From a virus: DNA of 51,263 bases. Numbering within the stretch: the first letter of the stretch is position 1; each line of letters opens with the position of its first letter. Location: positions 1 through 51,263 of IMG/VR virus record IMGVR_UViG_3300045988_146822; one strand, 5' to 3'. Position numbers and translations under genes: made by a program. Below the pieces are notes generated by a model that was not told the DNA's origin, searched no databases, and saw nothing but the letters and a program-made list of their open reading frames with translations. Of the stretch, positions 1 to 51,263 are shown one piece after another.

Positions 1-38
1 ACCGCCCTCAAACGAGAGCGGTCTGTGCGATTTTTTTA
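1..38 (-). terminator. Hairpin ACCGCCCTC-AAAC-GAGAGCGGT with flanking A/T runs, between the late-regulator gene and the terminase gene
   Basis: 9-bp stem with one mismatch. On the minus strand it is followed by TTTGTGTT, on the plus strand by a T7 run. It lies inside the terminal repeat. Confidence 0.4.
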
Positions 39-55
39 TCTTAGGAGTTCTATAT
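1..55. repeat. 55-bp terminal direct repeat, identical to 51209..51263 (circular closure or terminal redundancy)
   Basis: The first 55 nt (accgccctcaaacgagagcggtctgtgcgatttttttatcttaggagttctatat) recur exactly as the last 55 nt. Unique length is 51,208 bp. Confidence 0.95.
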
Positions 56-15309: not shown

Positions 15310-15543
15310 AAAAATCACCTCGTAACTATTATGGATTACAAAAATAAATTTACAGCAATAAAGCAATAACAAAATAAAAAACCGCCCTGCTCGACTGGTA
15401 CTCGAACAGAGCGGAATCACCTACACAGGGTGCAGATGATACGATTAAAACGCAAAATAATTGTATCACACTCCCCTGAATTTTTCAAGTTTTGAATATC
15501 AGGGGATTTTTGCACCCTTTTTTAAGCAAAAGGAGTGTATAAA

Positions 15544-16713
15544 ATGAAAAAACGCAAAGACGGGCGCTATCAGAAGAACATCTATATCGGACGAGATGAA
15601 AACGGTAAACGAAAGTACAAATCCGTATGTGGCACATCACGAAAAGAGGTTGAAACGCTTGCCGCCGAATTAAAACAAAAACTCGGCAAAGGCATAGATA
15701 TCTCATCAGATGATACATACGGATGTTGGAAAAAACGCTGGCTAACGGTTCAGAGGTCACTGCAAACACCACAGCAATACAAAACGCTTGAACGGTATCT
15801 CAAACATTTTGCAGAGCTTGAACCTTACAAAATCAACAAGCTGACAATTGCCGATTTTCAGGAAATCGTGTTCGACTTAGCCGCTAAGAACCCAACAACA
15901 GGCAAACCCACAGCGAAAAAATCGCTGAAAGAGTTCATCGCAACCGCAAGCCGAGTGTTTGAGTATGCTATTGAAAACCGAGCTATCGACTTCAACCCAC
16001 TGAAATATGTCAAAATATCAAAGAATGCGGCAAAGAAAAAAGAACGCAGAGCCTTGTCACCTGAAGAGCAAAAGCTAATAATCAACACTCCGCACAGAGG
16101 AAGATTGCCGGCAATGATTATGTTGCTTGCAGGACTGCGAAGAGGTGAATGTCTCGGCTTGCAATGGGCGGATATTGACTTGAAACGCAACAAAATAAAT
16201 GTTCATCAGACTTTGGTTCTTGACGGAAACAATTCTTACATAAAAGCAGGAGCGAAAACAGAAGCAGGTGTCCGCAAGGTTGATATTCCGACCGTTCTGT
16301 CAGACTATCTGAAAAGCTTTGCACCCCACTCCCCATTTGATTATGTAGTCACAACCACCAAAGGCAAACTTATGACAAATTCAGCGTGGCGGAGATTGTG
16401 GGAGAGCTACATCAATTGCCTAAACCTCGAAGCATTCAATTCACAGCAAGGCAAAATTGTCGGCATTGCTCCACGCAGTAAATACTGCCCCGACGGTATT
16501 CCGCAGGTCATAGAACCGTTTACAGCTCATTGTCTTAGACACACCCACGCAACAAATCTTTTCTATTCGGGCTATGATATTCTCTACATTCAACACCAGT
16601 TAGGGCATACTAAACCCGAAACCACCTTGAACATTTACACGCATTTAATGCAAGATGATACTGAAGCACCTGCGAAAAAACTTGATGATTTTCTCAATCG
16701 TAAAATAAGCTAA
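15544..16713 (+). CDS. int: Tyrosine recombinase, phage integrase (Int1)
   Basis: C-terminal HCLRHTHATNL...LGHTKPETTLNIYTH carries the R-H-R-Y catalytic signature. ATG at 15544 with GGAG 8 nt upstream. Next to the att core. Confidence 0.9.
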   Translation: MKKRKDGRYQKNIYIGRDENGKRKYKSVCGTSRKEVETLAAELKQKLGKGIDISSDDTYGCWKKRWLTVQRSLQTPQQYKTLERYLKHFAELEPYKINKLTIADFQEIVFDLAAKNPTTGKPTAKKSLKEFIATASRVFEYAIENRAIDFNPLKYVKISKNAAKKKERRALSPEEQKLIINTPHRGRLPAMIMLLAGLRRGECLGLQWADIDLKRNKINVHQTLVLDGNNSYIKAGAKTEAGVRKVDIPTVLSDYLKSFAPHSPFDYVVTTTKGKLMTNSAWRRLWESYINCLNLEAFNSQQGKIVGIAPRSKYCPDGIPQVIEPFTAHCLRHTHATNLFYSGYDILYIQHQLGHTKPETTLNIYTHLMQDDTEAPAKKLDDFLNRKIS

Positions 16714-16840: not shown

Positions 16841-16842
16841 AA

Positions 16843-17009: not shown

Positions 17010-17213
17010 TTTTAGTTTGCCTGCCGATTTTCAAAGGAACAAGATAATATATTTTAAAATTTTATTACACCGTAGCACAAAGATTTTTTACTATTAAAAT
17101 GGCAAGATGTTAAGCAATCAGAACGCTTACCCTTTTGGTAATTATTTATTATTGATTTAACTTAAAGCATTATGTATAATAGTTTTATAACAATAGATTT
17201 ACAGGGAGTAGTA

Positions 17214-19124
17214 ATGAATACAGTAAATGAAATTAAATATTTTATAACACAAAAGGAAGATAATGGTGCTCTTCTATTAACAGGAAAATGGGGCTGTGGA
17301 AAAACTTACTTAGCTAATCAAGTAATCAGCGAGCTTAACCAAGGAAACGATTTTATTGCAGTTTCCATATCATTATTTGGCGTTGATTCAATTGAGTTGC
17401 TACATAAAGAAATTAAAAACAAGGTGTTTTTTAGCAGAGGATTTGAAAAGGCACATAAAAAGGGCAAGAATGTATTTTCTAAAATAAAGAATTTTTCAAA
17501 TAACACAACTGCAATTTTAGGTGAAACTTTTCAAATTGCCAAAAGTATTAACAAGGCTCTTAATATTCGTTGGCAAGATTTTTTTAATGTTGAAAAATAC
17601 ATATACTGTTATAAAACTAATTTTGAAACAACCAATTGCCATAATAAAAACACTGAAAAAGGTAAAAAATTCATCAAAAAAAGATTGGTCTTATTCTTCG
17701 ATGATTTTGAACGCTCTAAACTTGATAGAATTGAGTTAATGGGTGTAATCAATGAATATTCTGAAAACAGAGGAATAAAAGTAATTATTATTGCAGACGA
17801 AGAGAAAATAGCAAGTAATAAAGCTGATAAAAATAATTCCGATACTAACCATCAAATAGATAACACTAACAATACAAACCTCAGTACAACCGATAGCAAT
17901 TTTAACTATTCTGATTTTAAAGAAAAACTTATATCTCGAACATTAAAAATTGAACCCGATTATAAAACTGTAATAGATACTATCCTAAGTTCTTACCAAG
18001 AAATAGTTATAGGCTACAAAGATTTTCTTATAGATAACAAGGATATTATTTATCAGATATATATTGAAAGTGATTCAAATAATTTCCGTTCAGTAAAAGC
18101 CTTTATTATAGATTATGAACGATTACATGAAGCTTGGCAAAATTCAAACATTTCCAGTGAAAATGAACCAAGTATGTTTTACAATTTCGGTGCTATGACA
18201 TTTGGAGTTAAAATGGGTTATTATAAAAAAGGAAAACACGGACTGCTATTATCATCCAGTGACTTAATGCAAAAATTTCTAAAATGGAATAATACATATA
18301 ATTTTAAAGCTTGTCAGGATTGGATTTTAAACAATGTATGGAGTAAAGAAAATTTTATATCTGAAATTAACAAAACATTCAAAGTACAATCATATACAGC
18401 AGATGAAAAATTTATGTATTTTAATCTTTGGGATTTGGAACAAAAGGATATAGAAAACGGTTTACCAAAAGTAATAGAAAATGCTTATAATGGAAAATTA
18501 ACAAGAGATCAACTTATTAATTTATTACAAAAAATTCATTATTTAAAAATATCCTCACTTTCTTTACCTTGCGATGTTGACTATTCAAAAATTGAAAGTG
18601 GTTTTGAAATTAGAAAAAAATGGATACTTGACTTTAAAACAATTGAGCCTAAAAGGCAAACTTTTTCTGAAAAATCTCAAATTGACGAAGAAGCATATTC
18701 TTTGTATGAAAACATTGAAAAATTTGATTCAATGATGTATGCTTTAGAACCTAGAATGGAATTTAAAAAATATCTTGAATCAACTGATAGTAAAAACACC
18801 TACGATTTTAGACACAAGCCCATAGGATGTTTTGATAAAAATCTCATGGAAATGTTTTGTCAAAAATATTTACAATCAAACAATGCTAGTAAAAGAGGAA
18901 TGTGTTTTACTTTTCTCGATATAGATTTTCGTGATAATGAATATTCAGATCATGATGTAAAAGAAACAATAGCGAATCTGAGAGAATTACAAAACAGACT
19001 AAATAACTCTGAACAAAACAAAAAAGACTGCATTACTGCTGCAATCAATAAATCGTTTTATGATAAAATTGATTCTAAAATTTCAGAAATTGAACAGTTT
19101 TATAATTCTATTAAAAACAGCTAA
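17214..19124 (+). CDS. KAP-family P-loop NTPase
   Basis: Walker A in the KAP form G-x-W-G-x-GKT (LLLTGKWGCGKTYL). Walker B is LVLFFDDFERS. AGGGAG RBS before the ATG at 17214. Visibly AT-rich. Confidence 0.7.
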   Translation: MNTVNEIKYFITQKEDNGALLLTGKWGCGKTYLANQVISELNQGNDFIAVSISLFGVDSIELLHKEIKNKVFFSRGFEKAHKKGKNVFSKIKNFSNNTTAILGETFQIAKSINKALNIRWQDFFNVEKYIYCYKTNFETTNCHNKNTEKGKKFIKKRLVLFFDDFERSKLDRIELMGVINEYSENRGIKVIIIADEEKIASNKADKNNSDTNHQIDNTNNTNLSTTDSNFNYSDFKEKLISRTLKIEPDYKTVIDTILSSYQEIVIGYKDFLIDNKDIIYQIYIESDSNNFRSVKAFIIDYERLHEAWQNSNISSENEPSMFYNFGAMTFGVKMGYYKKGKHGLLLSSSDLMQKFLKWNNTYNFKACQDWILNNVWSKENFISEINKTFKVQSYTADEKFMYFNLWDLEQKDIENGLPKVIENAYNGKLTRDQLINLLQKIHYLKISSLSLPCDVDYSKIESGFEIRKKWILDFKTIEPKRQTFSEKSQIDEEAYSLYENIEKFDSMMYALEPRMEFKKYLESTDSKNTYDFRHKPIGCFDKNLMEMFCQKYLQSNNASKRGMCFTFLDIDFRDNEYSDHDVKETIANLRELQNRLNNSEQNKKDCITAAINKSFYDKIDSKISEIEQFYNSIKNS

Positions 19125-19967: not shown

Positions 19968-21608
19968 TCATCTGTACTCATAGTGACCGCCGTCTTTGAC
20001 TTTCTCGTCATAGGCTTCTTTCCAATAGCCGTCTTCTACTGTTTTGGTTCCTGTTTTTACATACTCTTTCTCATAATGATATGCCCCTGCTCCATTTTCT
20101 CTTGCTTCCCAAAGAAGATGTTCTCTTCTCAGGTTAGCATCTGTTAACTTCATACCGCAATTATTACATACATTGTATCCTACCCATCCATATACATCTT
20201 CTTCGTGAGTACCTGTTACAATCCACTCTCTTTCGTGGTGTACTGTTTTATAATCATCTACCCATACCTTCTGCTTTGGCTTTTCTGTAGTTGTTACAGT
20301 ACTTGAAGAAGTGCTTGGCTTAGCTGGCTTCTGATTATTACTTGAAGAGTTGCTTGGCTTCGCTGGCTTCTGATTATTACTTGAAGAGTTGCTTGGCTTA
20401 GCTGGCTTCTTGTCGTTATCAGATGTATTTGTCTTTGAAGAGTTGTCTTTCTTTGAAGATGTATTTGACTTTGTATCTTCTTTCTTTTCGGTGTTACCCT
20501 TGTTGCTGTTGTTTTTGTTAGATACTGTAGTTTTTACATCGTCAACCTTAACTGTAACTGTCTTACCGTCATCGGTTTTTACTTCTACCTTGCCGTCTTT
20601 TACTTCGACTTTCTTACCATTCTTATCAGTGATGTTGCCGTCTTTGTCGACTTTGATTTCACCCTTGTCTACCAAATCTTTAACTGCCTTTGGTACTGTT
20701 ACTGCAGGAACTGTAGTTGCCTGTGCAGTGGTCTGAGCAGAAGTTGTTGCGGTCGGAACTTTGTCACTTTTACAACCTGCAAGAAGACTTGTGCCGACTG
20801 TTGTGCCTGCAAAAAGTAAGGTCATACCGCAAGCCATAGCTATGACTTTTGTCTTAACCGCTGTAACTGCACCTGTCTTAACCGCAGTTGCGGTACTCGT
20901 TTTTACCGCTGTTGAAACACCCTTTGAAGCCGCAGTTACAAGGCTTTCTCCGTTTGGAAGTGTGATTTTTATGCTCGGAACGCAAAGGCTCTTTGCCTGC
21001 TCTCTGAAAATTGTTGTAAAGAACGGCACAAATACAACACCGTGAAGCTTGTCACCGCTTTTGTTTTCGTAATCTTCAATTGCAGTTTTCATCTTTGCCC
21101 TTGAATAATTGAGCCTTGAAAGCACAGTACCCCTTGAACATTCAAAGACTTCTGCGATTTCATCAACAGTCATTTCATTAAAATAGTGCATAATCACTGT
21201 CTGATACTGAACATCGGACAGTACTTCCTGCATAATCGAAAGAATAATTTCTCTCTTTGCCTTGTCTGAAATGTATTCTTCGGGAATTGATATACGCTCG
21301 TCAACTATTGCCTGATTTTCAAAAATTTCATCGTCCAGTTGGATTTCACCTTTACCTTTCAAATAATTTTTGCACTTATTAACGGCAATTCTGTTAAGCC
21401 AACTTCTGATTTGTGATGATTTTTCCAAAGATTGGATTTTTAAAAAAGCCGTTATGTAAGTTTCCTGCATAATGTCCTGTGCGGTTGTTTCGTTCTTTAA
21501 AAAGCTGATACAAGTAAACCACACTTCACGCTCTGTAAGCTTGTAGAGCTTTTCAAATGATTTGTTATCTCCCTTCTTAATTTTTTCTACTAAGTGGGAA
21601 ATGTTCAT
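19968..21608 (-). CDS. ECF-type sigma-70 factor fused to a TM segment and a repeat-rich extracytoplasmic domain
   Basis: Region 2 reads DIMQETYITAF...SWLNRIAVNKCKNYLK. Region 4 reads MTVDEIAEVFECSRGTVLSRLNYSRAKMK. A hydrophobic stretch (VIAMACGMTLLFAGTTVGTSLLAGC) follows, then K/T/S-rich repeats and a C-terminal Cys-containing domain. GAGGAGG RBS at start 21608. Confidence 0.75.
   Translation of the reverse strand: MNISHLVEKIKKGDNKSFEKLYKLTEREVWFTCISFLKNETTAQDIMQETYITAFLKIQSLEKSSQIRSWLNRIAVNKCKNYLKGKGEIQLDDEIFENQAIVDERISIPEEYISDKAKREIILSIMQEVLSDVQYQTVIMHYFNEMTVDEIAEVFECSRGTVLSRLNYSRAKMKTAIEDYENKSGDKLHGVVFVPFFTTIFREQAKSLCVPSIKITLPNGESLVTAASKGVSTAVKTSTATAVKTGAVTAVKTKVIAMACGMTLLFAGTTVGTSLLAGCKSDKVPTATTSAQTTAQATTVPAVTVPKAVKDLVDKGEIKVDKDGNITDKNGKKVEVKDGKVEVKTDDGKTVTVKVDDVKTTVSNKNNSNKGNTEKKEDTKSNTSSKKDNSSKTNTSDNDKKPAKPSNSSSNNQKPAKPSNSSSNNQKPAKPSTSSSTVTTTEKPKQKVWVDDYKTVHHEREWIVTGTHEEDVYGWVGYNVCNNCGMKLTDANLRREHLLWEARENGAGAYHYEKEYVKTGTKTVEDGYWKEAYDEKVKDGGHYEYR
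20313..20411. repeat. 39-bp tandem repeat, about 2.5 copies, inside the sigma-fusion gene
   Basis: gcttggcttagctggcttctgattattacttgaagagtt repeated. It encodes NSSSNNQKPAKPS units. Confidence 0.85.
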
Positions 21609-22018
21609 AAAATAACCTCCTCTCATTTCCTTTCATAATATAGACAATTTAAAACGGCTTTTGATTTTATAAAATCGAAAAATTTTTCAAATTTTTTCAA
21701 AAAAGCAAATATTTTTCGCATAAAACAAAAAGTGCGTAGCTGAAGCTACGCACGAAAAATACATAGCTTTGATTGTTGCGACACAATATTTCACTTATAA
21801 GGTGTGAAAAGTAAAGCCTGTATTTTTACCGAAATAAAAATACACACTTAGGTGAACTTAAAATTAAATTTTTGTTTGGCATTTTTATTTTAGCATACAA
21901 TATGTGAAAATTCAATATTTTTGTAAAATAACTTTCAAAAATTATATGAATGAAACTGTAAAATTTGAAGTAATTTCAATTTTAGGGGGAACAACTTTTC
22001 AGCTGTTCCCCTTTTTTG

Positions 22019-23032: not shown

Positions 23033-23788
23033 ATGAATAAAAAATCTTTTAGGGTGGTACTGCTCACCTATTTTGCAGTAGCTTTTTTCGTAATTATGGC
23101 TTTCGGCTCTGAATATCTTTCAGAGTGCAACAAACTCGGAATACCGTTTTCTTTGTCAGGAGCAGTAAGTTATTTGCTGACAGGGTTTATCTGCCTAATT
23201 GCAATGACTGTTTTGGTTGTGGTTTTCTTGTTGGTATTGGAATTGAGCGACAGAAAATCTATCAAATCCGCTCTTCGCTTAACAGCTAATTTTGCTTCAA
23301 ACAAAGCAAGAATGAAAGTTGTAAACAGCGTTTATCCGAGCTTACTTTACTTTTTGTATGATGTATTACAGAGCAACAACGAGTTTTTAAAACTTCCGCT
23401 TGGTAAAGATTGCAGTTCTCTCTTAAAAGAGGGGTACAATCCACTATGTGTTGACAACTGTATTTTTTACACCTTTCAGATTATTATGCCAAAAAAATCA
23501 TATGACTTTGATGAAGATACATTAAAGCAAATTATCCAATCGTATATTGAAGCTCAATTGCTTAATTACGGCATGGTTAATTTACCCTCATACTACAACA
23601 GCAAATCCTACGGTATGATACCGAGCGTATATATTGAAAAGGTTGTATATAACGAGGAACAGCATTTACTAAAATTTGCCGTGATGTATATTAGCTGTGA
23701 AGATGATGTAAGGCATTATATCAAATCCAAAAAGAGAGATGAACAGCTGAATATAACAACAGATAAGGTGTATGACGATGAGGTTTGA
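23033..23788 (+). CDS. Membrane protein, hypothetical
   Basis: Two N-terminal hydrophobic helices. GAAGGAGG RBS. 251 aa. Confidence 0.6.
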   Translation: MNKKSFRVVLLTYFAVAFFVIMAFGSEYLSECNKLGIPFSLSGAVSYLLTGFICLIAMTVLVVVFLLVLELSDRKSIKSALRLTANFASNKARMKVVNSVYPSLLYFLYDVLQSNNEFLKLPLGKDCSSLLKEGYNPLCVDNCIFYTFQIIMPKKSYDFDEDTLKQIIQSYIEAQLLNYGMVNLPSYYNSKSYGMIPSVYIEKVVYNEEQHLLKFAVMYISCEDDVRHYIKSKKRDEQLNITTDKVYDDEV

Positions 23789-24500
23789 TAGCAGTAAATT
23801 AACTGTCGGTGTAGATTTATCTATTCTTTCACAGGGTGTAAAAGTGCCTGTTACGGTGGACTTTTCCTCTGTACCTCATATGCTGATAGTAGCACCAAGC
23901 GGAAGCGGTAAAACTTATCTTCTAACATACATATTAGGTCAAATAGCAAAGAAGTCTGTCAAATTGATTTTGGCAGACTTTAAAGGCATTGACTTTATTG
24001 AGTTTAATGACTGTCGGAATTACTATAAGCATAATTCTGTCGGTGAAGCTGTTGACTGTGTTTTTGATGAATTACAAAACAGAATGGCAAATGCAAGTGT
24101 AAATTCAGAATATGAACCGATTTATTTATGTATTGATGAGTGGTCAGGTTTCCTCAGTTCTTTAGCCGTAAAGAAAGAGCAGGATCACTACAAGCAAAAA
24201 CTTGCCAACATTCTTATGTTAGGTCGAGGTGCAAATATTTTTATCATTATGTCACTACAAAGAGCCGATTCAACATATATTACAGGACGAGATAACTTTG
24301 GCAATGTGGTAGGTCTTGGTACGCTCAGCAAAGAGAGTATAGCAATGGTATTTAATGATAATAAGGAGATGATAGAACCAAAATCAAGGGGCAAAGGATA
24401 TCTGCAAACTGACGGAAAGCCTTTGAGAGAAATAGTTGTGCCTATGTTACGAAACATAAACGATACAAAAGCCGTTATAAAAACAGCTTTATCCCGATAA
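23772..24500 (+). CDS. FtsK/SpoIIIE-family DNA translocase-like ATPase (coupling-protein type)
   Basis: Walker A is VAPSGSGKTYL and Walker B is IYLCIDEWSG. 242 aa. Confidence 0.7.
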   Translation: MTMRFDSSKLTVGVDLSILSQGVKVPVTVDFSSVPHMLIVAPSGSGKTYLLTYILGQIAKKSVKLILADFKGIDFIEFNDCRNYYKHNSVGEAVDCVFDELQNRMANASVNSEYEPIYLCIDEWSGFLSSLAVKKEQDHYKQKLANILMLGRGANIFIIMSLQRADSTYITGRDNFGNVVGLGTLSKESIAMVFNDNKEMIEPKSRGKGYLQTDGKPLREIVVPMLRNINDTKAVIKTALSR

Positions 24501-24536
24501 TTATTTGTACAGCAAATTGAATATTTATGCACAAGA

Positions 24537-24571
24537 ATAGCTCAATCATTACTCTGATTGGGCTATTTTTT
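24537..24571 (+). terminator. Intrinsic terminator after the FtsK-like gene
   Basis: AATAGCTCAATC...GATTGGGCTATT followed by T6. Confidence 0.65.
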
Positions 24572-24850
24572 ATGCTTTAAAATAAATTGTCGTTGCTTGT
24601 GGTTTATGGCAATGTTTTATGGTCGATAAAATAGCGTTTTTTACTATTAGCCAAAATTGCACTATACCCTATAACACATTTCTTTGTACCCTAACACTTT
24701 CAAAATCTAAAACCATACCTTTTTTGTCGTGGTTGATACATCTGAACCTTGGTTGAGTATCAATTCTTCCCTGCGTTTCTAACATAAGCACTTATAGAGT
24801 GTGTCCTGCACTCTGTGTAAATTTATGGCACAAGAAAGTTGTCAATAATT

Positions 24851-25669
24851 ATGCAAAGAAATGCATACAAGAAGGCTATTGGAGAAAGAATACAGCAGTT
24901 GAGAAAGGGGCTTAGAAAAGAAGGCTTTAACGGTCAGCCTAAGACTGTAAATGAGTTTCTTGAGTTTTTAAACCCGAAAATTGATGATGATTATGATAAT
25001 TACGGTGACTATTCGCTTACTGACATTAAATTTAACTATAAAAAGGATTATGTCAGTAAGGTTGAACACGGAATCGTTTTTCCGTCCACTGATTTTTTAT
25101 TTCTCATTCATCTGCGTTTTAATGTTTCTTTAGATTATTTGGTTTTCGGTCATAATTTACCCGAAATTGAAGAATTAAGGAAAATTTGTAAACATTCAGG
25201 TAAAAGCAAGATTAACGATTTTTGCTTTAATTGCTTTAATTTATTAGAGGGTAATTCAAAATATATCGAAGATTTTGATGATGAAGATGAAGATTTTTTT
25301 CTTGATTATAGAGCTCGATTAGATGAGGTACGCAAGTATTTTTGTAATCATCAACAAAGGAAATTGACACAAAAACAGTTCAGCGAATTGTTAGGTGTAT
25401 CTAAAAACACAATGGACAAGTATCATTCAAAGAAAAGTGATGTTCAGAGCAAAAAGTATGCAGACATAAGAAATACTGCTCTTGAGTATCTGATTAGATT
25501 TTCGCTCACTACAAAATGTTCGTTAGATTACTTATTGTATGGTACATATCTCTTAGAGGGCTTTCCCAGTGAACTTATGGAATTGCTTCGTAATTATGAC
25601 TATGCAAAGCAAACGCAAATCTTGAAGTTGTGGCTTGAAGAAACAAAAAAATTTTTTAAAAATTCTTAA
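24851..25669 (+). CDS. Double XRE-like HTH regulator
   Basis: Two HTH-like segments, each ending in SLDYL(V/L)(F/Y)G. An acidic linker separates them. The start is uncertain (TTG at 24839 or ATG at 24851). Confidence 0.55.
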   Translation: MQRNAYKKAIGERIQQLRKGLRKEGFNGQPKTVNEFLEFLNPKIDDDYDNYGDYSLTDIKFNYKKDYVSKVEHGIVFPSTDFLFLIHLRFNVSLDYLVFGHNLPEIEELRKICKHSGKSKINDFCFNCFNLLEGNSKYIEDFDDEDEDFFLDYRARLDEVRKYFCNHQQRKLTQKQFSELLGVSKNTMDKYHSKKSDVQSKKYADIRNTALEYLIRFSLTTKCSLDYLLYGTYLLEGFPSELMELLRNYDYAKQTQILKLWLEETKKFFKNS

Positions 25670-25692
25670 AAAGGGGTATTTCCTATCCAAAG

Positions 25693-25743
25693 TATCCCAA
25701 AATTCGCAACTCCATGTGTTTTTATATAATCAAGAACTTCAAA
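25693..25743 (+). repeat. 51-bp exact repeat, copy 2 (promoter-like)
   Basis: Identical to 22941..22991. It lies 32 nt upstream of the ATG at 25776. Confidence 0.9.
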
Positions 25744-25775
25744 TGAAGTTCAAAATAAACAGAAAGGAGATAGCT

Positions 25776-26117
25776 ATGGATATTAAAAATGCAAAAATTG
25801 ATGTACTGGGTTCTGTTGGCAGTAAGTTATTGTTGATAGATGTTATACCGTCATATGCCTATGTGGATGGACGCCGAACAAGCACGGTTACAGGATATAA
25901 GTATATCGTTATTCTTGAGGAAAATAAGTTTGATAGGCTTAGCGTTCGTATTGACGGTGATAAACAGATTGACAATCCTATTGACGGCAACAGCCGTATT
26001 TATGTACGCTTTGATAATCTTGAATTATCGCTGTATTGGACAAGTGCAGGACATCAGATTGCGGCAAAGGCAAGTGCTATTCATTTAGTTAATGAGAGTC
26101 TTAAACCGCAAAAGTAA
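25776..26117 (+). CDS. Hypothetical 113-aa protein, possibly DUF961/HelP-like by size and position upstream of the relaxase gene
   Basis: AAAGGAGA RBS 5 nt before the ATG at 25776. The family assignment is a guess from context only. Confidence 0.5.
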   Translation: MDIKNAKIDVLGSVGSKLLLIDVIPSYAYVDGRRTSTVTGYKYIVILEENKFDRLSVRIDGDKQIDNPIDGNSRIYVRFDNLELSLYWTSAGHQIAAKASAIHLVNESLKPQK

Positions 26118-26122
26118 TTGCT

Positions 26123-26229
26123 TTGCCGTGGGCGGTAGCACCGTCAAGGTGCGAACCGCCTGACGGCAAGTCAATCCCCTCACTTTTAATGAAGGGGATA
26201 ATATAATTTTATCGAATATGCGTTCGATA
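26123..26229 (+). promoter_or_regulatory. Three consecutive hairpins upstream of the Rep_trans gene: candidate oriT / double-strand origin
   Basis: Outer stem TTGCCGTGGGCGGT / ACCGCCTGACGGCAA (26123..26169) encloses the inner hairpin GCACC-gtcaa-GGTGC. Then ATCCCCT...AGGGGAT (26173..26199) and TATCGAA-tatgcg-TTCGATA (26210..26229). Confidence 0.45.
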
Positions 26230-26249
26230 TTATAGGAGTGATTATATGA

Positions 26250-27545
26250 ATGGATAAAGAATTGAAAGTCGGTGTAGATGAATTTTCTTTAGTTTTCTTT
26301 TATCCGATTGACGATGTTTGTAACGATTGGCAAAGTACAGCTTATTCAATGATACAGGAATTTATCTATAAGGCAGACATAGAACTGTTGCTCGGTAAAG
26401 TTGTAGAAATGCGTGATAAAAAGCCGCAGGCATATTCACAAGCATTTACTATTGAGAACGCTCCATATTATTTCACTATAGCGTTACACGAAACTTTTGT
26501 GCATATGGGAATATTAGTTCGTTTCTCTGCTCACTCTTGGGCAGTATATCAAAAGCGGTATTTTGATTTCTACGGTGAGAATATAAATATCGGAAAATTT
26601 TTAAGCAACATTGAAAGTCCGTTATACAGATACAGACTGAGCCGTATAGATTTAACTGCTGACTACAAAAATTATGATTTATCACCGCATAGCATATACA
26701 GCAGGTTAAAGGACGAAAGTCTACAGGTGCTTGACTGTAACTACAGACACAGTAAAGGAAAGATTTCTTCTGTTGAAAAAAATTTGGTGACTGAGTCAAT
26801 CTATATCGGTTCAAGGGCTGAAAACGCACAGTCACTACTTCGGGTTTATGATAAAAAATCGGAGCAAATTAGCAACAACGGTTTTCGCCTTGATGAAGCA
26901 TTGCAGTGCGACAGTTGGGTTAGATTTGAGGCTTCATACAGAGGAAACTATGCTCATCAAATAACCGAGCAATTGGAACATATAACAGATGATGTTTCTG
27001 TATCGCAGTTCATTGCAAGCAAAATATGTGACAGATACCGTTTTTATGACCCTCTTAACAGCTGTTTTACTGATTTTACAAACGACCTGCTTAAAATAAT
27101 TGAATGCAGTAATTTTCACGCTTTGCGTTGTGAAAGTCCTGCTAACAATAGTTTGAATAAAAGCATTCAGCATATTATTTACGGTAGCGGTTTGTTCCCT
27201 TTGATATACAAAATCAGCGTTATATGGGGTGAAAAAGCTGTTGCTGAATTTTGGAGTATTCTGTATGAAATATACAAGAAATACCATAAGAAAAAACTTG
27301 AAATTAACCCTCAGATAAGGGCTTGGCTTAGAAAGAATTTTCTTAGCTTATCACAGCAAAGTTTATCAGATTGCTTTGTCAGTGTTGACCTTACAAAGAT
27401 TGATGTTGCCGAGATTGTAAATAAGATCTCCGAAAGTGACAATCCGTTTACACTAACGGCAATAAACACAAGCAGTAACACAGATAATCAGGTAGTATCT
27501 GATGAAGAATTTGAACGCACTTTTTATTCAAAGGATATGGAGTGA
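26250..27545 (+). CDS. Rep_trans-family rolling-circle replication initiator / relaxase
   Basis: LSRIDLTADYKNYD and VRFEASYRGNYAHQ resemble the conserved Rep_trans blocks of the NicK/Orf20/RepC type. 431 aa. Confidence 0.65.
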   Translation: MDKELKVGVDEFSLVFFYPIDDVCNDWQSTAYSMIQEFIYKADIELLLGKVVEMRDKKPQAYSQAFTIENAPYYFTIALHETFVHMGILVRFSAHSWAVYQKRYFDFYGENINIGKFLSNIESPLYRYRLSRIDLTADYKNYDLSPHSIYSRLKDESLQVLDCNYRHSKGKISSVEKNLVTESIYIGSRAENAQSLLRVYDKKSEQISNNGFRLDEALQCDSWVRFEASYRGNYAHQITEQLEHITDDVSVSQFIASKICDRYRFYDPLNSCFTDFTNDLLKIIECSNFHALRCESPANNSLNKSIQHIIYGSGLFPLIYKISVIWGEKAVAEFWSILYEIYKKYHKKKLEINPQIRAWLRKNFLSLSQQSLSDCFVSVDLTKIDVAEIVNKISESDNPFTLTAINTSSNTDNQVVSDEEFERTFYSKDME

Positions 27546-27696
27546 GATATTGAACCCGAAATACATAAATACCGAGAAACTTAATTTCTTATAAACACAC
27601 AAATAAAAACCGAAAAACCTAAAAACTGATTACCATAGAAATATGATTATCTTACTTCATATTTTTATATTATAATTTTCTATAAGGAGAATGATT

Positions 27697-28176
27697 ATGA
27701 GTGATAATTATATGCTTAATGAAGTAGTAAAGTATTGGAAGCTAACAAATGACCTTTTAGTAGCTTTTGAGGACTTTAACGGTCAAATACAAAAGCATAC
27801 GGTTCATTTGCCAAAAGAGGACATTGACACAATTCTTAATATCGGAATCACAACAGGTATTAAAAATTGGTGCGACAGAGTTGATATTTTAGAGGACAAA
27901 CTGCTTGGGACTTATTATAGTGAACAAGTGTCAAGAGGCGGTTCTCTGATATTTCATGACAAAATTTTTGATAGAGTCGGAGTTATGACTCTTTCGAATT
28001 TTCTCCAGTCATATGGCTGTATATACAGTGCGGCAACCTCATACGGTCTTAGTGAGCATTGTATTGACGGTTACTTTTACAATTCACCTCGCATATGTGA
28101 TTACATCATTCAGTTCGCTTTGTTTGAAGATATACCCTATTTTCACGCAGAAGAAACGGAAGGTGGTAGCATATGA
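27697..28176 (+). CDS. Hypothetical protein
   Basis: AAGGAGA RBS before the ATG at 27697. 159 aa. Confidence 0.5.
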   Translation: MSDNYMLNEVVKYWKLTNDLLVAFEDFNGQIQKHTVHLPKEDIDTILNIGITTGIKNWCDRVDILEDKLLGTYYSEQVSRGGSLIFHDKIFDRVGVMTLSNFLQSYGCIYSAATSYGLSEHCIDGYFYNSPRICDYIIQFALFEDIPYFHAEETEGGSI

Positions 28177-28601
28177 ATGATGAGAAAAAGAATATGTGTG
28201 ATGAAGATGATTCCGATGAAATTCTCGAATATACAGGCGGTAGCGAGCTTAGCGATTTAACCTTTCAGACGGGTTATGAGAACTATTCGCAATGGCGAAT
28301 AAAAGAGATTCTAAAAGAAGTTGGTTTTAGATTAGAGCCTCTATATGTAGGATACAAAGCTCTTCGATACCGTCCGTGTCAGAGGTATTGGGTAGTAAAT
28401 ATCCTCACAGGAGAAAGAGTAGGCAATTCATACAACGGTTTTAGTTTTGAGGATTTGAGATATGTACTTGCAAGATGTGGATATTCATTGCATAGTCAAC
28501 ATTATAATCCCACCAGAGATAAGGACGGCAGACGCACTTCTTGTAAGGAGTTTCTTGAGCTTGTAGAAAGCCTTCCTGATGAAAAGGAGGACTTAATATG
28601 A
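28173..28601 (+). CDS. Hypothetical acidic protein
   Basis: ATGA overlap with the upstream ORF. 142 aa. Confidence 0.5.
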   Translation: MNDEKKNMCDEDDSDEILEYTGGSELSDLTFQTGYENYSQWRIKEILKEVGFRLEPLYVGYKALRYRPCQRYWVVNILTGERVGNSYNGFSFEDLRYVLARCGYSLHSQHYNPTRDKDGRRTSCKEFLELVESLPDEKEDLI

Positions 28602-28774
28602 GTGTAGAGATTAAATTCATCGGTACTAAAGAGGTTGCCGAAGCACTCGGTTGTTCCTTGCCTACTGCACGCAATATTATGTTGAGAGCAGATTTCCCTT
28701 TAATACGGGTAGGTAAAAATCTTAAAGTTGAGCTAAATGCTTTTCTTAACTGGTCGCAGAAAAGAAGGGTATGA
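28598..28774 (+). CDS. xis: Excisionase-family HTH protein (Xis of the nested element)
   Basis: 58 aa, below the ORF-track cutoff: MSVEIKFIGTKEVAEALGCSLPTARNIMLRADFPLIRVGKNLKVELNAFLNWSQKRRV. GGAGG RBS. Directly upstream of Int2. Confidence 0.65.
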   Translation: MSVEIKFIGTKEVAEALGCSLPTARNIMLRADFPLIRVGKNLKVELNAFLNWSQKRRV

Positions 28775-28811
28775 GCATTTAAAGCATTTACATAATATTT
28801 AAGCAACCGTA

Positions 28812-28840
28812 TTGACACAAAAGATTTAAGGCTATACAAT
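28812..28840 (+). promoter_or_regulatory. Promoter upstream of Int2 (TTGACA-17-TACAAT)
   Basis: Read directly from the sequence. Confidence 0.5.
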
Positions 28841-28884
28841 ACTGATATAGTAAAAATCTTTTGTGCTTTACGGTTTGGAAAGGA

Positions 28885-30066
28885 ATGGTTTTTATTAACA
28901 CAAAAAGCACAAAACCTAAGTCTAAATGTAATAAACTTGATTACGGTGACGGTTCTGTATACTATGTTAAAAGCAGAAAATGCTTTGCAGGTCAGATAAC
29001 GCTTGAAATTAACGGTGAAAAAAAACGCAAGACGGCTTACGGTAAAACCGAACGCATTGTTAAGAATAAGTTGTTTGAATATCGTATTCAGGCAAAAGCA
29101 GGATTTTTTGACGAACCCGATAACACAACTGTCTATGAGCTTGCCGAAAAGATGATTGAAGAACAATTCTCTCTTAATGAGATTAAGCAAACTTCATATG
29201 ACCGCAAGAATGAAACCTTAAAGTCAATGAGTCCTATTTATGATTTAGCAATGCGTGAGATTACGGAAGATGTAATAAAGCATTTTTTCATTTCTAAAAT
29301 CTCTTATTCGCAGTCATACTTGGATAAAGCATATCAGCTTTTAAAGTCAGTTTTCAATGAAGCTGTAAGGAAGAAAATTGTTACAGAAAACATTATGCTG
29401 AACATCAGAAAGCCAAAGTCAAAGCAGGAGCTTGTAAAAGTAAGAGCATTGACTGTTGATGAACAGAAAAAGCTGATAGATGTTCTCAAAAGCGAGGATA
29501 TACGCTATTCGGAACAAATGCTTTTGTCAATGTTTACAGGCATGCGTATGGGCGAAAGTAACGCCTTAGAGGTAGGAGATATAAACTTTAATGACCGTAC
29601 AATTAGAGTTTGTAAAACTGTCAGCAGAGGTCTTAACGGTAAAACATATATAAGTAATTCCACAAAGACTAAAGCAGGTATGCGTACAATCTATTTTAAT
29701 GATGATATGGCTGATTTTTTAAAACAGTGTATCGGAGATAAAAAAGACGGTCTTATATTTGCTTCAAGTGTGGATAAACTTGTCACAACTAATCAGGTAA
29801 ATTATCAATACGCAAACACGCTGAAAAAGTATGATATACTTGATAAGAGTGTTTACGGAAAGGTTGATTTACATTCACTTCGTCACACATATGCAACAAG
29901 ATGTATTGAATCAGGTATGCCTGCAAAGGTACTGCAAAATCTTCTCGGTCATACTGATATAAGAATTACGCTTGATACATACTGTGATGTTTTCCAAAAA
30001 TACAGTATGGAAAATCTTGCTGTAGCTGACAGCTATATGAAGAGCAATAACATTGCAATAGTATGA
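28885..30066 (+). CDS. int: Tyrosine recombinase (Int2 of the nested element)
   Basis: HSLRHTYATRCIESG...LLGHTDIRITLDTYCDV carries the catalytic signature. The start is uncertain (28861 TTG or 28885 ATG). Confidence 0.85.
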   Translation: MVFINTKSTKPKSKCNKLDYGDGSVYYVKSRKCFAGQITLEINGEKKRKTAYGKTERIVKNKLFEYRIQAKAGFFDEPDNTTVYELAEKMIEEQFSLNEIKQTSYDRKNETLKSMSPIYDLAMREITEDVIKHFFISKISYSQSYLDKAYQLLKSVFNEAVRKKIVTENIMLNIRKPKSKQELVKVRALTVDEQKKLIDVLKSEDIRYSEQMLLSMFTGMRMGESNALEVGDINFNDRTIRVCKTVSRGLNGKTYISNSTKTKAGMRTIYFNDDMADFLKQCIGDKKDGLIFASSVDKLVTTNQVNYQYANTLKKYDILDKSVYGKVDLHSLRHTYATRCIESGMPAKVLQNLLGHTDIRITLDTYCDVFQKYSMENLAVADSYMKSNNIAIV

Positions 30067-30100
30067 CTGTCCGAAAATGCACTGTCAACTTTACTGTCAC
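30066..30100 (+). promoter_or_regulatory. ACTGTCC / ACTGTCA / ACTGTCA repeats: candidate Int2 arm-type sites (int-proximal arm)
   Basis: gactgtccgaaaatgcactgtcaactttactgtcac. Same motif as 16981..17009. Confidence 0.55.
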
Positions 30101-30147
30101 ACCATAAAAAGCCGATAAATAAGCCACTTGTCAGGGTTACCTGCACC

Positions 30148-30257: not shown

Positions 30258-30286
30258 TTGACAAATCCGAAAATATGGTATATAAT
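30258..30286 (+). promoter_or_regulatory. Consensus promoter TTGACA-17-TATAAT driving the tRNA gene
   Basis: ttgaca aatccgaaaatatggta tataat, about 30 nt upstream of the tRNA 5' end. Confidence 0.7.
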
Positions 30287-30315
30287 AATCAAGCTGTTGT
30301 TATTAAACAACATTT

Positions 30316-30392
30316 CGAGGTGTAGCTCAGTTTGGTAGAGTGCTTGGTTTGGGACCAAGATGCCGCAGGTTCAAGTCCTGTCACCTCGACCA
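30316..30392 (+). tRNA. tRNA-Pro (anticodon UGG), complete with encoded CCA
   Basis: Manual cloverleaf: acceptor CGAGGTG/CACCTCG, D arm GCTC..GAGT, anticodon arm CTTGG-TTTGGGA-CCAAG, T arm GCAGG-TTCAAGT-CCTGT, then A73 and CCA. 77 nt. Confidence 0.9.
30345..30392 (+). repeat. att core copy 2 (3' 48 nt of the tRNA-Pro gene)
   Basis: Identical to 16793..16840. Confidence 0.95.
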
Positions 30393-30398
30393 TAGAAA

Positions 30399-30608: not shown

Positions 30609-30644
30609 ACTCCCCTCACTCGCTTTTTACGGCGGATGAGGGGA
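30609..30644 (-). terminator. Hairpin CTCCCCTCA-18 nt-TGAGGGGAG downstream of the P-loop NTPase gene
   Basis: 9-bp perfect stem, followed by TTTGTT on the minus strand. The stem sequence resembles the hairpin at 32476..32510. Confidence 0.5.
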
Positions 30645-30769
30645 GCAAATCAAAGAAACACAGCAAGTGACAGTAAAACAATCACAATTATTAAAATTAA
30701 AATCAATCTACAAGTAAAATTTCTTTTAAAATTGTTGACAAACCTTACACTAATGGATATACTAAGTAT

Positions 30770-30885
30770 AGAGGATATCCTCTGTGAAATTAATTTTCTA
30801 AATTGATTGGGCTAGATAGTCCGTGAGTTTAATACTCTAAACTAAGGAGCAAAGCATTATCGTTTTGCTCCTTTTTTATTTTTCT
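30770..30885 (+). ncRNA. Candidate roughly 110-nt small RNA convergent with the 3' end of the P-loop NTPase gene
   Basis: Promoter TTGACA (30735..30740), 17 nt, TATACT (30758..30763). No ORF with an ATG start. Internal palindrome AGAGGATATCCTCT. Terminator GGAGCAAA-gcattatcgt-TTTGCTCC plus a T run (30846..30885) overlaps the NTPase stop codon. Confidence 0.3.
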
Positions 30886-32401
30886 TTACAATTAAAGATT
30901 TTTTCGCTCCATAATGTACAATAAATTTAGATAAAAAATTAGGTTTATTTTTACCATCAAATCTATAGCCGAAAGATACCGCACCATCAGTTATGTTGCC
31001 TAACAAACCAATTTTATATAAGTCAGTAATGACTGCCTTTAGATCAGATATTTTATCATACTGTCCTTTGTTTTTTTGGTAGAAATCGTTAATTTCATTA
31101 TACATAAACTGTGGTTTATTAAAATCGGATATCAAATCAAATATCTGTTCAATAGTAGCAGGTTCATAGTATATTTTTAATTCGTTTTTAAATTCTCCGA
31201 TAAAATACTGTGAATAACGAGCCATTGCGTCACGGTAAAATGAAGGCTGAAACGCTAATGAATCAGGATTTTGTTCCTTGATAATATTCAAAAAAGCTAT
31301 TATATCCCTAGGTCTACCTAAACTTCTACTTATAAGATAATCCATATGATATAAATTATCAATTTTATTTGAGAAGAATTTCATATAAATATCCTTATCT
31401 GAAATACTTTCATCAATTTTTGCAGAAACTCTAATTTTATTTAAAATCATTTTTGAAATATCATAATCCCACTGATTATGCCGCGTTTTTTCACACCAAT
31501 CTATGTGTATTGAAGAATCAGTAATTAACTTATTTATATTAGAAGAATGCGCATTTAGCTTATCTAATAAATCATCTCTTATAACTACAATAAGTTTTGA
31601 TTTATATTTTCTTAATTTTCCATTAAGGCTATTTGTAGAATTTAGATAATTGATTAAAAATTGTTTAAAATTTTCGCTGGACAAGTCATCTTTTTTCTGT
31701 TCGTCTAAGTCATCACTAATCAGAATAATTGATGTATATTTTAAACATTTGTAAATCATTTTTTCTAATTCAGGTACCACCTCATAGGCATTTTTCTTCT
31801 TATATTCTTTTTCATTTTCCTTTTTATTTTCAAAAATGCGTTTTCCTATAAAACCCCTGAAAGACGATTCCACATCAAAACGTTCTGCTTCAGAACTTTT
31901 AGATTTTATTGCGTCAAAAGAATAATTTCCATCTGGGTATCTTTCCTTATAGAACTTAAGAAGTTTTTTTCTTGCTAGCGTAAAAAGAATTGCTTTTAAT
32001 GGATTTTTACAAAATAAATCTTTAGCAGATATTTCAAATATCAGTCTTGCTATTTCAATAAGTATTATATATGTGTAAAAAGGTTCAGGTTCATTTCCAG
32101 AAGTTGTTTTACCTACCTCAACTAATGAATTTAAGTTAATCTGATTACATTTTATTGTTTTTGCAAATTTTCCTTCTTTTTTTGCTTGATTTTCTAAATA
32201 TTTTACCAAGTAGGTTTTCCCTGAACCTTTTTTTCCTTTTACTATAAATTTATCATCATTATTTTTCAAAAGAGAATAATCACAGTGCCTATCATAAAAA
32301 TAATTTTGAAAATTTTCGTTTGCAGATTCCTTTTCTCCATCAACATTACCTAAATCTATATCTCCTAGTTTAATATCTTTCAAACCATCAATTCCGCCCA
32401 T
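30857..32401 (-). CDS. Stand-alone P-loop NTPase (STAND/KAP-like), candidate phage-borne defence or exclusion gene
   Basis: Walker A is KGKKGSGKTYL and Walker B is SIILISDDLDE. Also carries an LGRPRDII motif. 514 aa. Strikingly AT-rich relative to the flanking phage genes. Confidence 0.65.
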   Translation of the reverse strand: MGGIDGLKDIKLGDIDLGNVDGEKESANENFQNYFYDRHCDYSLLKNNDDKFIVKGKKGSGKTYLVKYLENQAKKEGKFAKTIKCNQINLNSLVEVGKTTSGNEPEPFYTYIILIEIARLIFEISAKDLFCKNPLKAILFTLARKKLLKFYKERYPDGNYSFDAIKSKSSEAERFDVESSFRGFIGKRIFENKKENEKEYKKKNAYEVVPELEKMIYKCLKYTSIILISDDLDEQKKDDLSSENFKQFLINYLNSTNSLNGKLRKYKSKLIVVIRDDLLDKLNAHSSNINKLITDSSIHIDWCEKTRHNQWDYDISKMILNKIRVSAKIDESISDKDIYMKFFSNKIDNLYHMDYLISRSLGRPRDIIAFLNIIKEQNPDSLAFQPSFYRDAMARYSQYFIGEFKNELKIYYEPATIEQIFDLISDFNKPQFMYNEINDFYQKNKGQYDKISDLKAVITDLYKIGLLGNITDGAVSFGYRFDGKNKPNFLSKFIVHYGAKKSLIVKKNKKGAKR

Positions 32402-32475
32402 AATTATTCCTCATTTTACAAATTTTTTATTATTTACAATTATATAATATATGTGATAATAAATCAAGTGAAAAC

Positions 32476-32510
32476 TCCCCTCACCTATCTTCAATGACAG
32501 TGTGAGGGGA
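32476..32510 (-). terminator. Hairpin TCCCCTCAC-17 nt-GTGAGGGGA after the endolysin gene
   Basis: 9-bp stem, followed by GTTTT on the minus strand and by a T run on the plus strand. Confidence 0.6.
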
Positions 32511-32547: not shown

Positions 32548-33360
32548 TTATTTGATTTTCGCAGTGTAATCAAGGGCAATCCAGCCGGCACCGCTTTTGA
32601 GCTTGCCCCACTTTTTTGCGCCTGTGCCTGATTTTTCGGCTACGATTGTGTACGCTCCGCCTTTGGCAATTGAACCGCATACGGGATAGTTTGTGCCTGC
32701 ACCTTTACGGATATTCACACCGTCATTTGCGGTAATCCTGACAATGTACGGTTTAAACGCTTTTGATGTGCTCGGCTTTGATGTTGTCGGCTTCGATGTC
32801 TGCGTAGGCTTTGTTGTGCCTGATGAGCTTGCCGACTTATACTTATAGCCGAAGTATTTACACATACCCTTGCAGATTGCCTCAGCGATTGCGTTTGTGT
32901 TGTTCCTGATCCAGTTCGAGCCTGTCACGGTGTCGTGAAATTCACACTCAACATACACGGTTAATGCCTTCGGCACATTGATTTCGTAGAGGTCGGTTTT
33001 GTAGCTGACTGAATCGTCCTTGCCGGGCGAGATTGCTCCGAGGGCAGACTTTACCGCCTCGGCAGCCTTTCTGCCGTTTGAGTTCAGGCAAAACACTCTT
33101 GTACCGCCCGTATATTTGCCGTTAAAAGCGTTGGTGTGAATCGGCATATGAATGTCTGCACCGAACTTGTCCGATTCGGGACAGCGTGTCTGCATAAGCG
33201 TTCCCGACTTTGCAACCATAACCTCAAAACCGCAGCGCTTGAGAGCTTTGGCTGTTGCGGCGGCAATTTTGTCGCACTGAGCCATTTCATTTGTACCGCC
33301 CGTTGCATAGGTGTTCCTATTCTGATTTGACGGGCTGAGATAGATTCTTTTTACTGACAT
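32548..33360 (-). CDS. Endolysin: N-acetylmuramoyl-L-alanine amidase (Amidase_3-like) with C-terminal SH3b domain
   Basis: YLSPSNQ..N, IHTNAFNG and ECEFHD are metal/catalytic-type blocks. T/S/K-rich linker. The SH3b-like C-terminus reads GVNIRKGAGTNYPV...GWIALDY. Confidence 0.75.
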   Translation of the reverse strand: MSVKRIYLSPSNQNRNTYATGGTNEMAQCDKIAAATAKALKRCGFEVMVAKSGTLMQTRCPESDKFGADIHMPIHTNAFNGKYTGGTRVFCLNSNGRKAAEAVKSALGAISPGKDDSVSYKTDLYEINVPKALTVYVECEFHDTVTGSNWIRNNTNAIAEAICKGMCKYFGYKYKSASSSGTTKPTQTSKPTTSKPSTSKAFKPYIVRITANDGVNIRKGAGTNYPVCGSIAKGGAYTIVAEKSGTGAKKWGKLKSGAGWIALDYTAKIK

Positions 33361-51208: not shown

Positions 51209-51263
51209 ACCGCCCTCAAACGAGAGCGGTCTGTGCGATTTTTTTATCTTAGGAGTTCTATAT
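51209..51263. repeat. Second copy of the 55-bp terminal direct repeat
   Basis: Exact match to 1..55. Confidence 0.95.

Follow-up and report, generated by a model that had tools for sequence, protein, structure and literature searches.

A candidate phage-exclusion moron of the P2 Fun(Z) family, with a predicted convergent small RNA, at the endolysin-attachment site junction of a temperate phage from gut-type metagenomes

What does a single, AT-rich ATPase gene do between the attachment site and the lysis genes of a temperate phage? The question is raised by positions 30,609 to 32,510 of IMG/VR virus record IMGVR_UViG_3300045988_146822, a stretch of 51,263 nucleotides (nt; the window) from a temperate phage with its closest relatives in metagenomes of human-gut type. 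A preliminary description of this DNA had pointed to an open reading frame (ORF) for a P-loop protein of 514 amino acids (aa), bracketed by look-alike hairpins, and had suggested that it was a STAND/KAP-like gene for defence or superinfection exclusion, acquired as a discrete module. Here, the protein is assigned to the family of Fun(Z) of coliphage P2, the borders of the cassette are traced in related phages that carry or lack it, and a convergent small RNA that was absent from the earlier account is described. We propose, at a rough probability of 0.68, that the locus is a Fun(Z)-family phage-exclusion moron that would be expressed from its own promoter in the lysogen, be paired with an antisense RNA, and block superinfection. 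A role in defence is supported by homology and by location, both of them read from sequence.

Kinship with Fun(Z) of phage P2

The three motifs named at the outset, Walker A (GKKGSGKT), Walker B (ILISDDLDE) and GRPRD, are all found in the 514-aa ORF as claimed. The protein matches the NCBIfam family NF047389, 'P-loop ATPase, Sll1717 family', at 249.2 bits (cut-off 75; E 8.8e-74), with residues 17-503 aligned to model positions 1-454 of 454, and it falls into PHROGs family phrog_13260 (E 7e-79), the function of which is listed as unknown. These two entries provide a family name without a function, and the window member belongs to a sub-clade of at least 51% identity that carries the antisense RNA. 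Pfam yielded sub-threshold P-loop matches only, and a sequence search of the PDB returned P-loops only. An exhaustive profile search recovered 3676 clusters (50% identity) at E<=1e-3, and 648 at E<=1e-30. Among the best 150 matches, the proteins are about 500 aa when full-length, the shorter ones being fragments; each gives a single full-length match and none is of a size that suggests a fusion. Invariant in the family alignment are an N-terminal G..DG..E...FY, Walker A and the D..D of Walker B, and further R275, N288, K291 and R363-P364-R365.

A tblastn search of plasmids recovered a 32%-identical homolog on pXO2 of Bacillus anthracis, and because this homolog is labelled 'FunZ' in one record, the search reached coliphage P2. 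The product of P2 fun(Z) (AAD03288.1, 528 aa) scores 209.3 bits on NF047389. Its hhalign comparison with the family profile has a probability of 99.4% and an E-value of 4.3e-21 over 482 columns, with Walker A (GEKGTGKT in P2), the Walker B aspartates and RPRD in register, and pairwise BLASTP with the window ATPase gives E 3e-8. The alignments show the window ATPase to be, at the level of sequence, a distant homolog of P2 Fun(Z) in the same curated family. The P2 record states of fun(Z): 'cloned gene blocks growth of T5; nonessential; lysogenic conversion; confers sensitivity to FUdR'. The annotated T5 block gives substance to the earlier suggestion of a defence or exclusion gene, and no homology to a housekeeping phage function was found. 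Published work treats Z/fun as a locus of phage exclusion or defence and counts it among the hotspots of P2-like phages (PMC3091744; PMC9519451; PMC13586616).

The likeness to P2 Fun(Z) is collinear over the full length (528 and 514 aa) and includes Walker A (GxKGxGKT), Walker B (D..D) and RPRD. It extends to gene organization, in that both are stand-alone genes in a variable, terminator-flanked slot and are transcribed apart from the late operons. The conversion genes of P2 are reportedly unusually AT-rich as well. The settings differ: P2 is a myovirus of E. coli, whereas the window derives from a gut-metagenome phage with Firmicute-type neighbours and matches; the P2 slot lies between the tail genes G and FI, and the present one between lysin and att; a convergent small RNA is not annotated in P2; and a phenotype is known for P2 only. 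P2 has already provided the protein family and its role in exclusion, and the system is therefore not new in kind. New are the link between the cassette and Fun(Z), a hotspot with shared-stem terminator boundaries, and a conserved antisense RNA. The link connects P2 fun(Z) with a very large family of stand-alone ATPases (over 3,600 clusters at 50% identity) that is spread across Bacillota, Bacteroidota, Proteobacteria and Actinobacteria and also occurs on pXO2. A literature search returned nothing on 'Sll1717' or WP_001247533 and nothing mechanistic on FunZ. DS-41 of DefensePredictor was considered as a relative and dropped; the E. coli homolog resembles it faintly, with a score well short of the cut-off (NF053860, E 3e-6), and the window protein gave no match to it.

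The protein proved to be neither KAP nor a canonical STAND NTPase, against the likeness drawn before. PF07693 (KAP) gave no match at E<=1, and the STAND domains NACHT (15.8 bits, cut-off 26.7), NB-ARC (14.6, cut-off 23.5) and nSTAND3 (13.2, cut-off 27.2) matched below threshold and over the P-loop only. Pfam revealed neither a C-terminal repeat sensor (TPR/WD40/LRR) nor an N-terminal effector domain, and nothing more than a helical lid and a small winged-helix-like C-terminus is seen in the AlphaFold2 model. This model (pLDDT 80, pTM 0.79) has an N-terminal extension of about 50 aa and a disordered insert at residues 161-202. In a Foldseek search of the PDB, its best matches are archaeal Orc1/Cdc6 proteins (2qby_A, E 1e-4; 1w5s_B, E 3e-4; TM-scores 0.35-0.51), followed by ORC subunits, BrxC, RdrA, TnsC and DnaA, with TM-scores of 0.3-0.5 overall. 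A fold search of BFVD gave no match at E <1e-3, and weak matches to PF24389 (ORC-CDC6-like) were obtained on fragments of homologs. The model suggests a fold with an AAA+ base, a lid with an arginine motif and a winged-helix-like tail, resembling the Orc1/Cdc6 type; because the TM-scores are low, this is a generic AAA+ description and not membership of the matched families. BrxC of BREX, RdrA of RADAR and Orc1/Cdc6 are similar at the level of fold only (TM 0.3-0.5, 10-13% identity), and, unlike BrxC and RdrA, the cassette comes without BREX or RADAR partner genes and without membership of their sequence families.

Family members recur in the accessory slots of prophages, and tools for defence annotation could reasonably include the family. 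The homolog of Lactococcus phage CAP lies directly 3´ of holin-lysin at the genome end. Among the compared loci (L numbers), that of L007, an unrelated phage with a 58%-identical homolog, has the gene between the holin and host sporulation genes, L202 about 300 nt from tRNA-Leu with host genes beyond, and L003 between early genes and the small terminase subunit. In E. coli ATCC 8739 the homolog occupies the S-V (orf30) variable slot of a P2-like prophage, and on pXO2 it is found near an integrase and a SIR2 gene. Of 55 full-length homologs in IMG/VR, 9 are within 100 nt of a contig end (16%, versus 1% expected) and 24 within 2 kb (versus 17% expected). No conserved partner gene was seen across 37 bacterial genome loci from many phyla. 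The picture that emerges from these neighbourhoods is that of a solitary, mobile accessory gene.

A gene of this kind might also act in lysogenic conversion of host physiology (nucleotide metabolism, redox or stress response) and have no direct anti-phage role. The 'sensitivity to FUdR' conferred by P2 fun(Z) is a host phenotype in nucleotide metabolism, and the neighbours at some genome loci are housekeeping genes. Sll1717 of Synechocystis, from which the family takes its name, reportedly influences how reduced or oxidised the plastoquinone pool is. We regard this reading as quite improbable, since the corresponding slot in relatives of the phage holds defence or toxin-antitoxin-type cargo (see below), the sole tested member of the family excludes phage, and the distribution of the gene is patchy and linked to mobile elements.

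The cassette and its terminator-hairpin boundaries

The preliminary description had placed the gene next to the attachment site, and the comparison of junctions agrees. The 53-nt att core at the 3´ end of the tRNA-Pro gene (Table 1) is repeated at 16793-16845, right after a tyrosine integrase gene (15535..16713). Close relatives of the phage were retrieved via the endolysin (87-95% nucleotide identity); in their prophage form the order is lysin, tRNA-Pro and flanking DNA, and in the attP form of L030 it is lysin, 53-nt core and integrase, so that the cassette is the first element on the lysin-side arm of att. The ATPase gene is absent from most close relatives. In 16 of them the junction is empty, with one hairpin and 275-290 nt from the lysin stop to the att core, versus 2156 nt in the window. 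Segment 30561-32533 of the window is 99.2% identical in L078 and segment 30136-32558 is 96.1% identical in L079; the lysin genes of both differ from that of the window, as does the downstream module of L078. The empty junctions, together with cassettes of 96-99% identity behind different lysin genes, show the cassette to behave as a discrete mobile module in these alignments, as had been suggested.

The composition of the cassette sets it apart as well. The ATPase ORF has 26.8% GC (18.4% at third codon positions, GC3) compared with 49.0% GC (GC3 54.6%) in the endolysin gene and 43% GC in the late region, in accordance with the AT-richness noticed previously. With a predicted promoter and terminators of its own, deviant GC content, 16 empty sites and occurrence in other backgrounds, region 30646-32510 is best described as a self-contained, horizontally exchanged moron. 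The promoter motif TTGATT-17-TATAAT is found at the equivalent upstream place of the L007 homolog. The morons and hotspots of temperate phages (Z/fun and old/tin of P2; lambdoid phages) are similar in having their own promoter and terminators, deviant composition, presence or absence among relatives, and alternative defence cargo (PMC9519451, PMC13586616). They differ in that the present slot lies at an endolysin-att(tRNA-Pro) junction, in another phage lineage, and has terminator hairpins with a shared stem as boundaries.

Table 1. Features of the cassette and its surroundings in the window; the small RNA, promoters and terminators are predictions
Feature	Position	Strand	Details
tRNA-Pro(TGG) gene	30316..30392	plus	feature to 30397; att core = 3´ 53 nt (30345-30397)
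att-side hairpin, 'type A' loop	30610..30645	minus	stem CTCCCCTCA 30610-30618 / TGAGGGGAG 30637-30645
Small RNA promoter, predicted	30735..30763	plus	TTGACA-17-TATACT, 11/12 matches
Structured small RNA, about 110 nt, predicted ends	30769..30883	plus	antisense to 3´ end and 3´ untranslated region of ATPase mRNA
Small RNA intrinsic terminator	30844..30873	plus	12-bp stem, 6-nt loop, then TTTTTATTTTT; overlaps ATPase stop 30857-30859
Fun(Z)/Sll1717-family P-loop (AAA+-like) ATPase ORF	30857..32401	minus	514 aa; motifs and NF047389 match
ATPase promoter, sigma-70-type, predicted	32439..32467	minus	TTGATT-17-TATAAT, 10/12 consensus matches
lysin-side hairpin, 'type B' loop	32476..32510	minus	stem TCCCCTCAC 32476-32484 / GTGAGGGGA 32502-32510
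Endolysin gene (Amidase_3 + SH3_3)	32548..33360	minus	last late gene; upstream neighbour of the cassette

The bracketing hairpins proved real and strong, although the positions first given for them were 1 nt off in each case. Folded as minus-strand RNA, the att-side hairpin reaches -25.0 kcal/mol (z -6.3) ahead of a U-rich tract, and the lysin-side hairpin -25.6 kcal/mol (z -5.3) ahead of UUUU. Because of these strong folds and U-rich tracts, both look like minus-strand intrinsic terminators. The octamer TCCCCTCA is present in 5 copies in the window versus 0.76 expected, a number reached in 0 of 100 shuffles. A third hairpin at 26173..26199, which had been counted as part of the pattern, does not fit it: the structure at about 26175-26199 has a bulged, imperfect stem of -10.8 kcal/mol (z -2.4) and no T-run. 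Its likeness to the bracket is probably coincidental and consists of one more copy of TCCCCTCA.

The origin of the two hairpins can be read from the empty sites. The att-side hairpin, loop included, is identical to the lone hairpin of the empty-site relatives L011, L035 and L029, which also share the right flank. When empty sites are aligned to the window, the left flank of the lone hairpin corresponds to the lysin-side hairpin, and its loop and right flank correspond to the att-side hairpin; therefore, the insertion lies between two copies of the stem, one borne by the cassette (loop B) and one from the ancestral lysin terminator (loop A). The holin-endolysin operon is predicted to end at the lysin-side hairpin, which forms the 5´ boundary of the cassette; the 3´ boundary is the att-side hairpin, the ancestral endolysin terminator, which now likely terminates the ATPase transcript. 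The type B loop is found in the relatives L016, L012 and L021, alone or with other cargo, and in L012 a B...A bracket encloses a different cargo. In the unrelated phage L007, TCCCCTCAC...GTGAGGAGA-TTTTTCAC lies upstream of the homolog, with the stem and the downstream TTTTCAC as in the window, such that the CCCCTCA/TGAGGGG stem recurs 5´ of a diverged ATPase cassette. The shared terminator stem may act as a recombination linker for the exchange of cargo. A survey of L008-L056 3´ of the endolysin found the stem CCCCTCA/TGAGGGG of the lysin terminator constant and three loops (A, B and C); loop B is inverted in L026.

An alternative is that the ATPase serves the element itself, either as an initiator or loader resembling Orc1/Cdc6 or DnaA, or as a TnsC/IstB-like helper of a hairpin-flanked cassette. 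The identity of the top fold matches (archaeal Orc1/Cdc6, ORC, DnaA and TnsC) and the look-alike hairpins on both sides are in line with this, and a weak Rfam match to IS605-orfB-I RNA coincides with the small RNA described below. We nevertheless judge the idea highly improbable: the fold matches have low TM-scores (0.35-0.51) and cover a generic AAA+ core, the gene is not accompanied by a transposase or recombinase, most close relatives replicate without it, and membership of the Fun(Z) family points elsewhere. The Rfam match (16.6 bits, E 0.48) is far below the gathering score of 94, and IS605-orfB-I RNA was rejected as an identity for the small RNA. Transposition of a hairpin-flanked cassette in the manner of IS200/IS605 or PATE elements was rejected, because the empty sites retain one hairpin, unlike after IS200/IS605 excision, and no transposase is associated.

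The slot between endolysin and att holds other cargo in other relatives. AbiLi (PADLOC E 8e-83) and a RiboL-PSP HEPN protein are present in L023 and L042-L046. L021 has a SocA/Panacea antitoxin-domain protein and a partner ORF, L027 an N6/N4 DNA methyltransferase, and L012 an M78 (ImmA/IrrE-like) peptidase plus a small ORF. As judged from this cargo, the endolysin-att junction is a defence hotspot, in keeping with the moron/defence slot of the preliminary description. In L013 (2413-4441, minus strand), the slot carries three AT-rich ORFs of the same orientation, for 302, 219 and 163 aa (29% GC in the cargo). Pfam matched none of the three, and the one PADLOC match, of the 163-aa ORF to Cas8a (E 0.0045), is at chance level; together they may encode an uncharacterised defence system. 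The endolysin-tRNA-Pro junction is a compact natural hotspot, with AbiL beside uncharacterised cargo, such as the L013 ORFs, that could be mined.

A predicted convergent antisense RNA and the probable role of the cassette

Downstream of the ATPase gene and directed against it, a small RNA is predicted from a near-consensus promoter, a structured body and an intrinsic terminator (Table 1). The terminator is expected to be unidirectional because the minus strand has no U-tract. The RNA folds into four hairpins with a minimum free energy of -36.1 kcal/mol (z -4.7) and has a conserved core, AGUCCGUGAGUUU(U/A)AUACUCUAAA, and two further conserved single-stranded motifs, GUGAA and UUCUAAA. The next terminator on the ATPase strand lies past the small-RNA gene, namely hairpin A in the window and a hairpin at 2252-2283 in L007; the small RNA would therefore be fully complementary to the 3´ untranslated region (UTR) of the ATPase mRNA.

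The small RNA is kept in 6 of 6 independent loci with ATPases at least 51% identical. The clade comprises L007, L202-204, L006, L205 (which is 5´-truncated) and L360 (in which the ATPase gene is split), in addition to the near-identical L078 and L079. L007, L202 and L360 each have a near-consensus promoter at the corresponding place, where L006 has a weaker one (TTGTAT as -35). Compensatory changes support the structure: H1 is paired as GAGG/CCUC, GGAG/CUCC or GGG/CCC, and the inner pair of H2 is U-A, A-U or C-G. The terminator stem differs wholly in sequence between loci and still pairs perfectly. Coding constraint does not explain the conservation of the core, which lies outside coding sequence in the window and whose antisense strand in L007 encodes the C-terminal extension. 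Together, the comparisons show conservation of the predicted small RNA within this clade. At L360 (222-1880), a 64%-identical ATPase copy is spread over two ORFs and is probably a pseudogene, and the convergent small-RNA gene and its consensus promoter are intact.

Rfam contains no family that matches the small RNA, and blastn against GenBank phages found no match. A scan with a strict pattern for further copies returned only two known contigs; a relaxed pattern was unspecific, and after filtering by nhmmer, only L278 and L355, in the L079 version, proved real. A hydrophobic peptide following AAGGAG in the small-RNA terminator was dropped as a candidate, as it would require an ATT start and AAGGAG is an arm of the terminator. 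A promoter-like sequence at 30256-30288, before the tRNA-Pro gene (12/12 consensus), shares TGTTGACAAA with the small-RNA promoter (30733-30765) and is 73% identical to it over 33 nt.

In the exclusion model, the upstream terminator hairpin would separate the cassette from the lysis operon, allowing the prophage to express the ATPase independently of the late genes. In this clade, the cis-antisense RNA, complementary to the 3´ end of the mRNA, would hold ATPase expression low. Upon superinfection, the Orc1/Cdc6-like AAA+ module with its winged-helix tail could bind phage nucleic acid or protein, and ATP-dependent assembly could then block phage development or abort the infection.

Several observations weigh against this model. 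Identity to P2 Fun(Z) is only about 20%, and function may therefore have diverged. We know of no mechanism for Fun(Z) itself, so that homology supplies none, and the experimental phenotype in the family is that of P2 alone. The protein has no effector domain. PADLOC gave a faint BrxD P-loop match only, a result that is uninformative because PADLOC has no model for P2 Fun(Z) either. Among the 37 genome loci, the neighbours are heterogeneous, with restriction-modification (type I), holin/lysin and recombinase genes in a minority, and one Clostridium group has housekeeping neighbours. As for the small RNA, nhmmer detected it in none of the other approximately 340 loci (359 in total), about 120 of which carry homologs of 21-36% identity, and no convincing analogous convergent unit was seen 3´ of distant homologs (pXO2, P0011 (L003), Clostridium and phage CAP). 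Duplex energies between the small RNA and the 5´ UTR or Shine-Dalgarno region of the ATPase mRNA were no better than shuffled at 5 of 5 loci.

One tentative possibility is that the ATPase and the small RNA form a two-component, RNA-controlled abortive-infection module, which would be released when infection perturbs transcription or RNA turnover. If true, this would be a new toxin-antitoxin-like architecture and an experimental handle on the mechanism of Fun(Z). The closest known arrangement is that of the 3´-overlapping type I toxin-antitoxin loci of Firmicutes, such as txpA/RatA and bsrG/SR4 of Bacillus subtilis prophages and par of Enterococcus. In these loci, as predicted here, a convergent small RNA overlaps the 3´ end of the protein mRNA, and the location in a prophage is shared. 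They differ in that the partner here is a soluble ATPase of 514 aa and not a small hydrophobic peptide, and sequence similarity was not found (Rfam negative).

The same features can be taken to indicate an addiction module, in which a growth-inhibitory ATPase and a labile antisense-RNA antitoxin stabilise the prophage or cassette, with no part in exclusion. This would agree with the conserved 3´ overlap and the near-consensus promoter and terminator in all 6 clade loci, with the Panacea antitoxin-domain gene pair in the L021 slot, and with retention of the small RNA beside the split ATPase gene of L360. It appears unlikely to us, considering that the known type I toxins are small membrane peptides and not ATPases of 500 aa, and that most of the family, P2 Fun(Z) included, is without such an RNA; addiction and abortive infection are also mutually compatible roles. 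The conserved antisense RNA is a concrete and testable candidate for a regulatory partner.

Other features of the window

A second AT-rich (26.9% GC), stand-alone NTPase gene at 17172..19124 (plus strand) encodes a true KAP protein (PF07693, 63.7 bits) and corresponds to the PADLOC single-gene defence candidate PDC-S49 (E 3e-39). It is situated just past the other att copy, is absent from L051, and is probably another swappable defence cargo. The window has an attL-like junction (full tRNA-Pro and phage arm) and an attR-like junction (integrase and partial tRNA copy), 13.5 kb apart with non-phage-looking DNA between them. A 55-nt terminal direct repeat (1..55 and 51209..51263) indicates a circular assembly. 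Either phage and captured island form a real circle, or the circle arose in assembly by cycling through two copies of tRNA-Pro.

A small integrative element at about 23033..30135 (plus strand) has genes for a Rep_trans initiator (26250..27545) and for a tyrosine integrase of its own (28861..30066), and ends about 180 nt upstream of tRNA-Pro. The element is present in L011, L019, L032, L036, L042 and L044; other relatives keep only 30136-30315 of the window. At and within its left part, a 54-nt direct repeat (22938-22991 and 25690-25743; 98% identical, 2752 nt apart) may mark the ends of the element or a further nested insertion. The gene at 19968..21626 (minus strand) encodes a 552-aa protein; its N-terminus corresponds to ECF-type sigma-70 region 2/4, and its long C-terminal extension includes three tandem 39-nt (13-aa) repeats (20300-20416). 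Finally, a near-perfect 22-nt inverted repeat (13876-13928; 95% complementary, 9-nt spacer) between leftward early genes and a helix-turn-helix repressor gene (14085..14774) looks like an operator.

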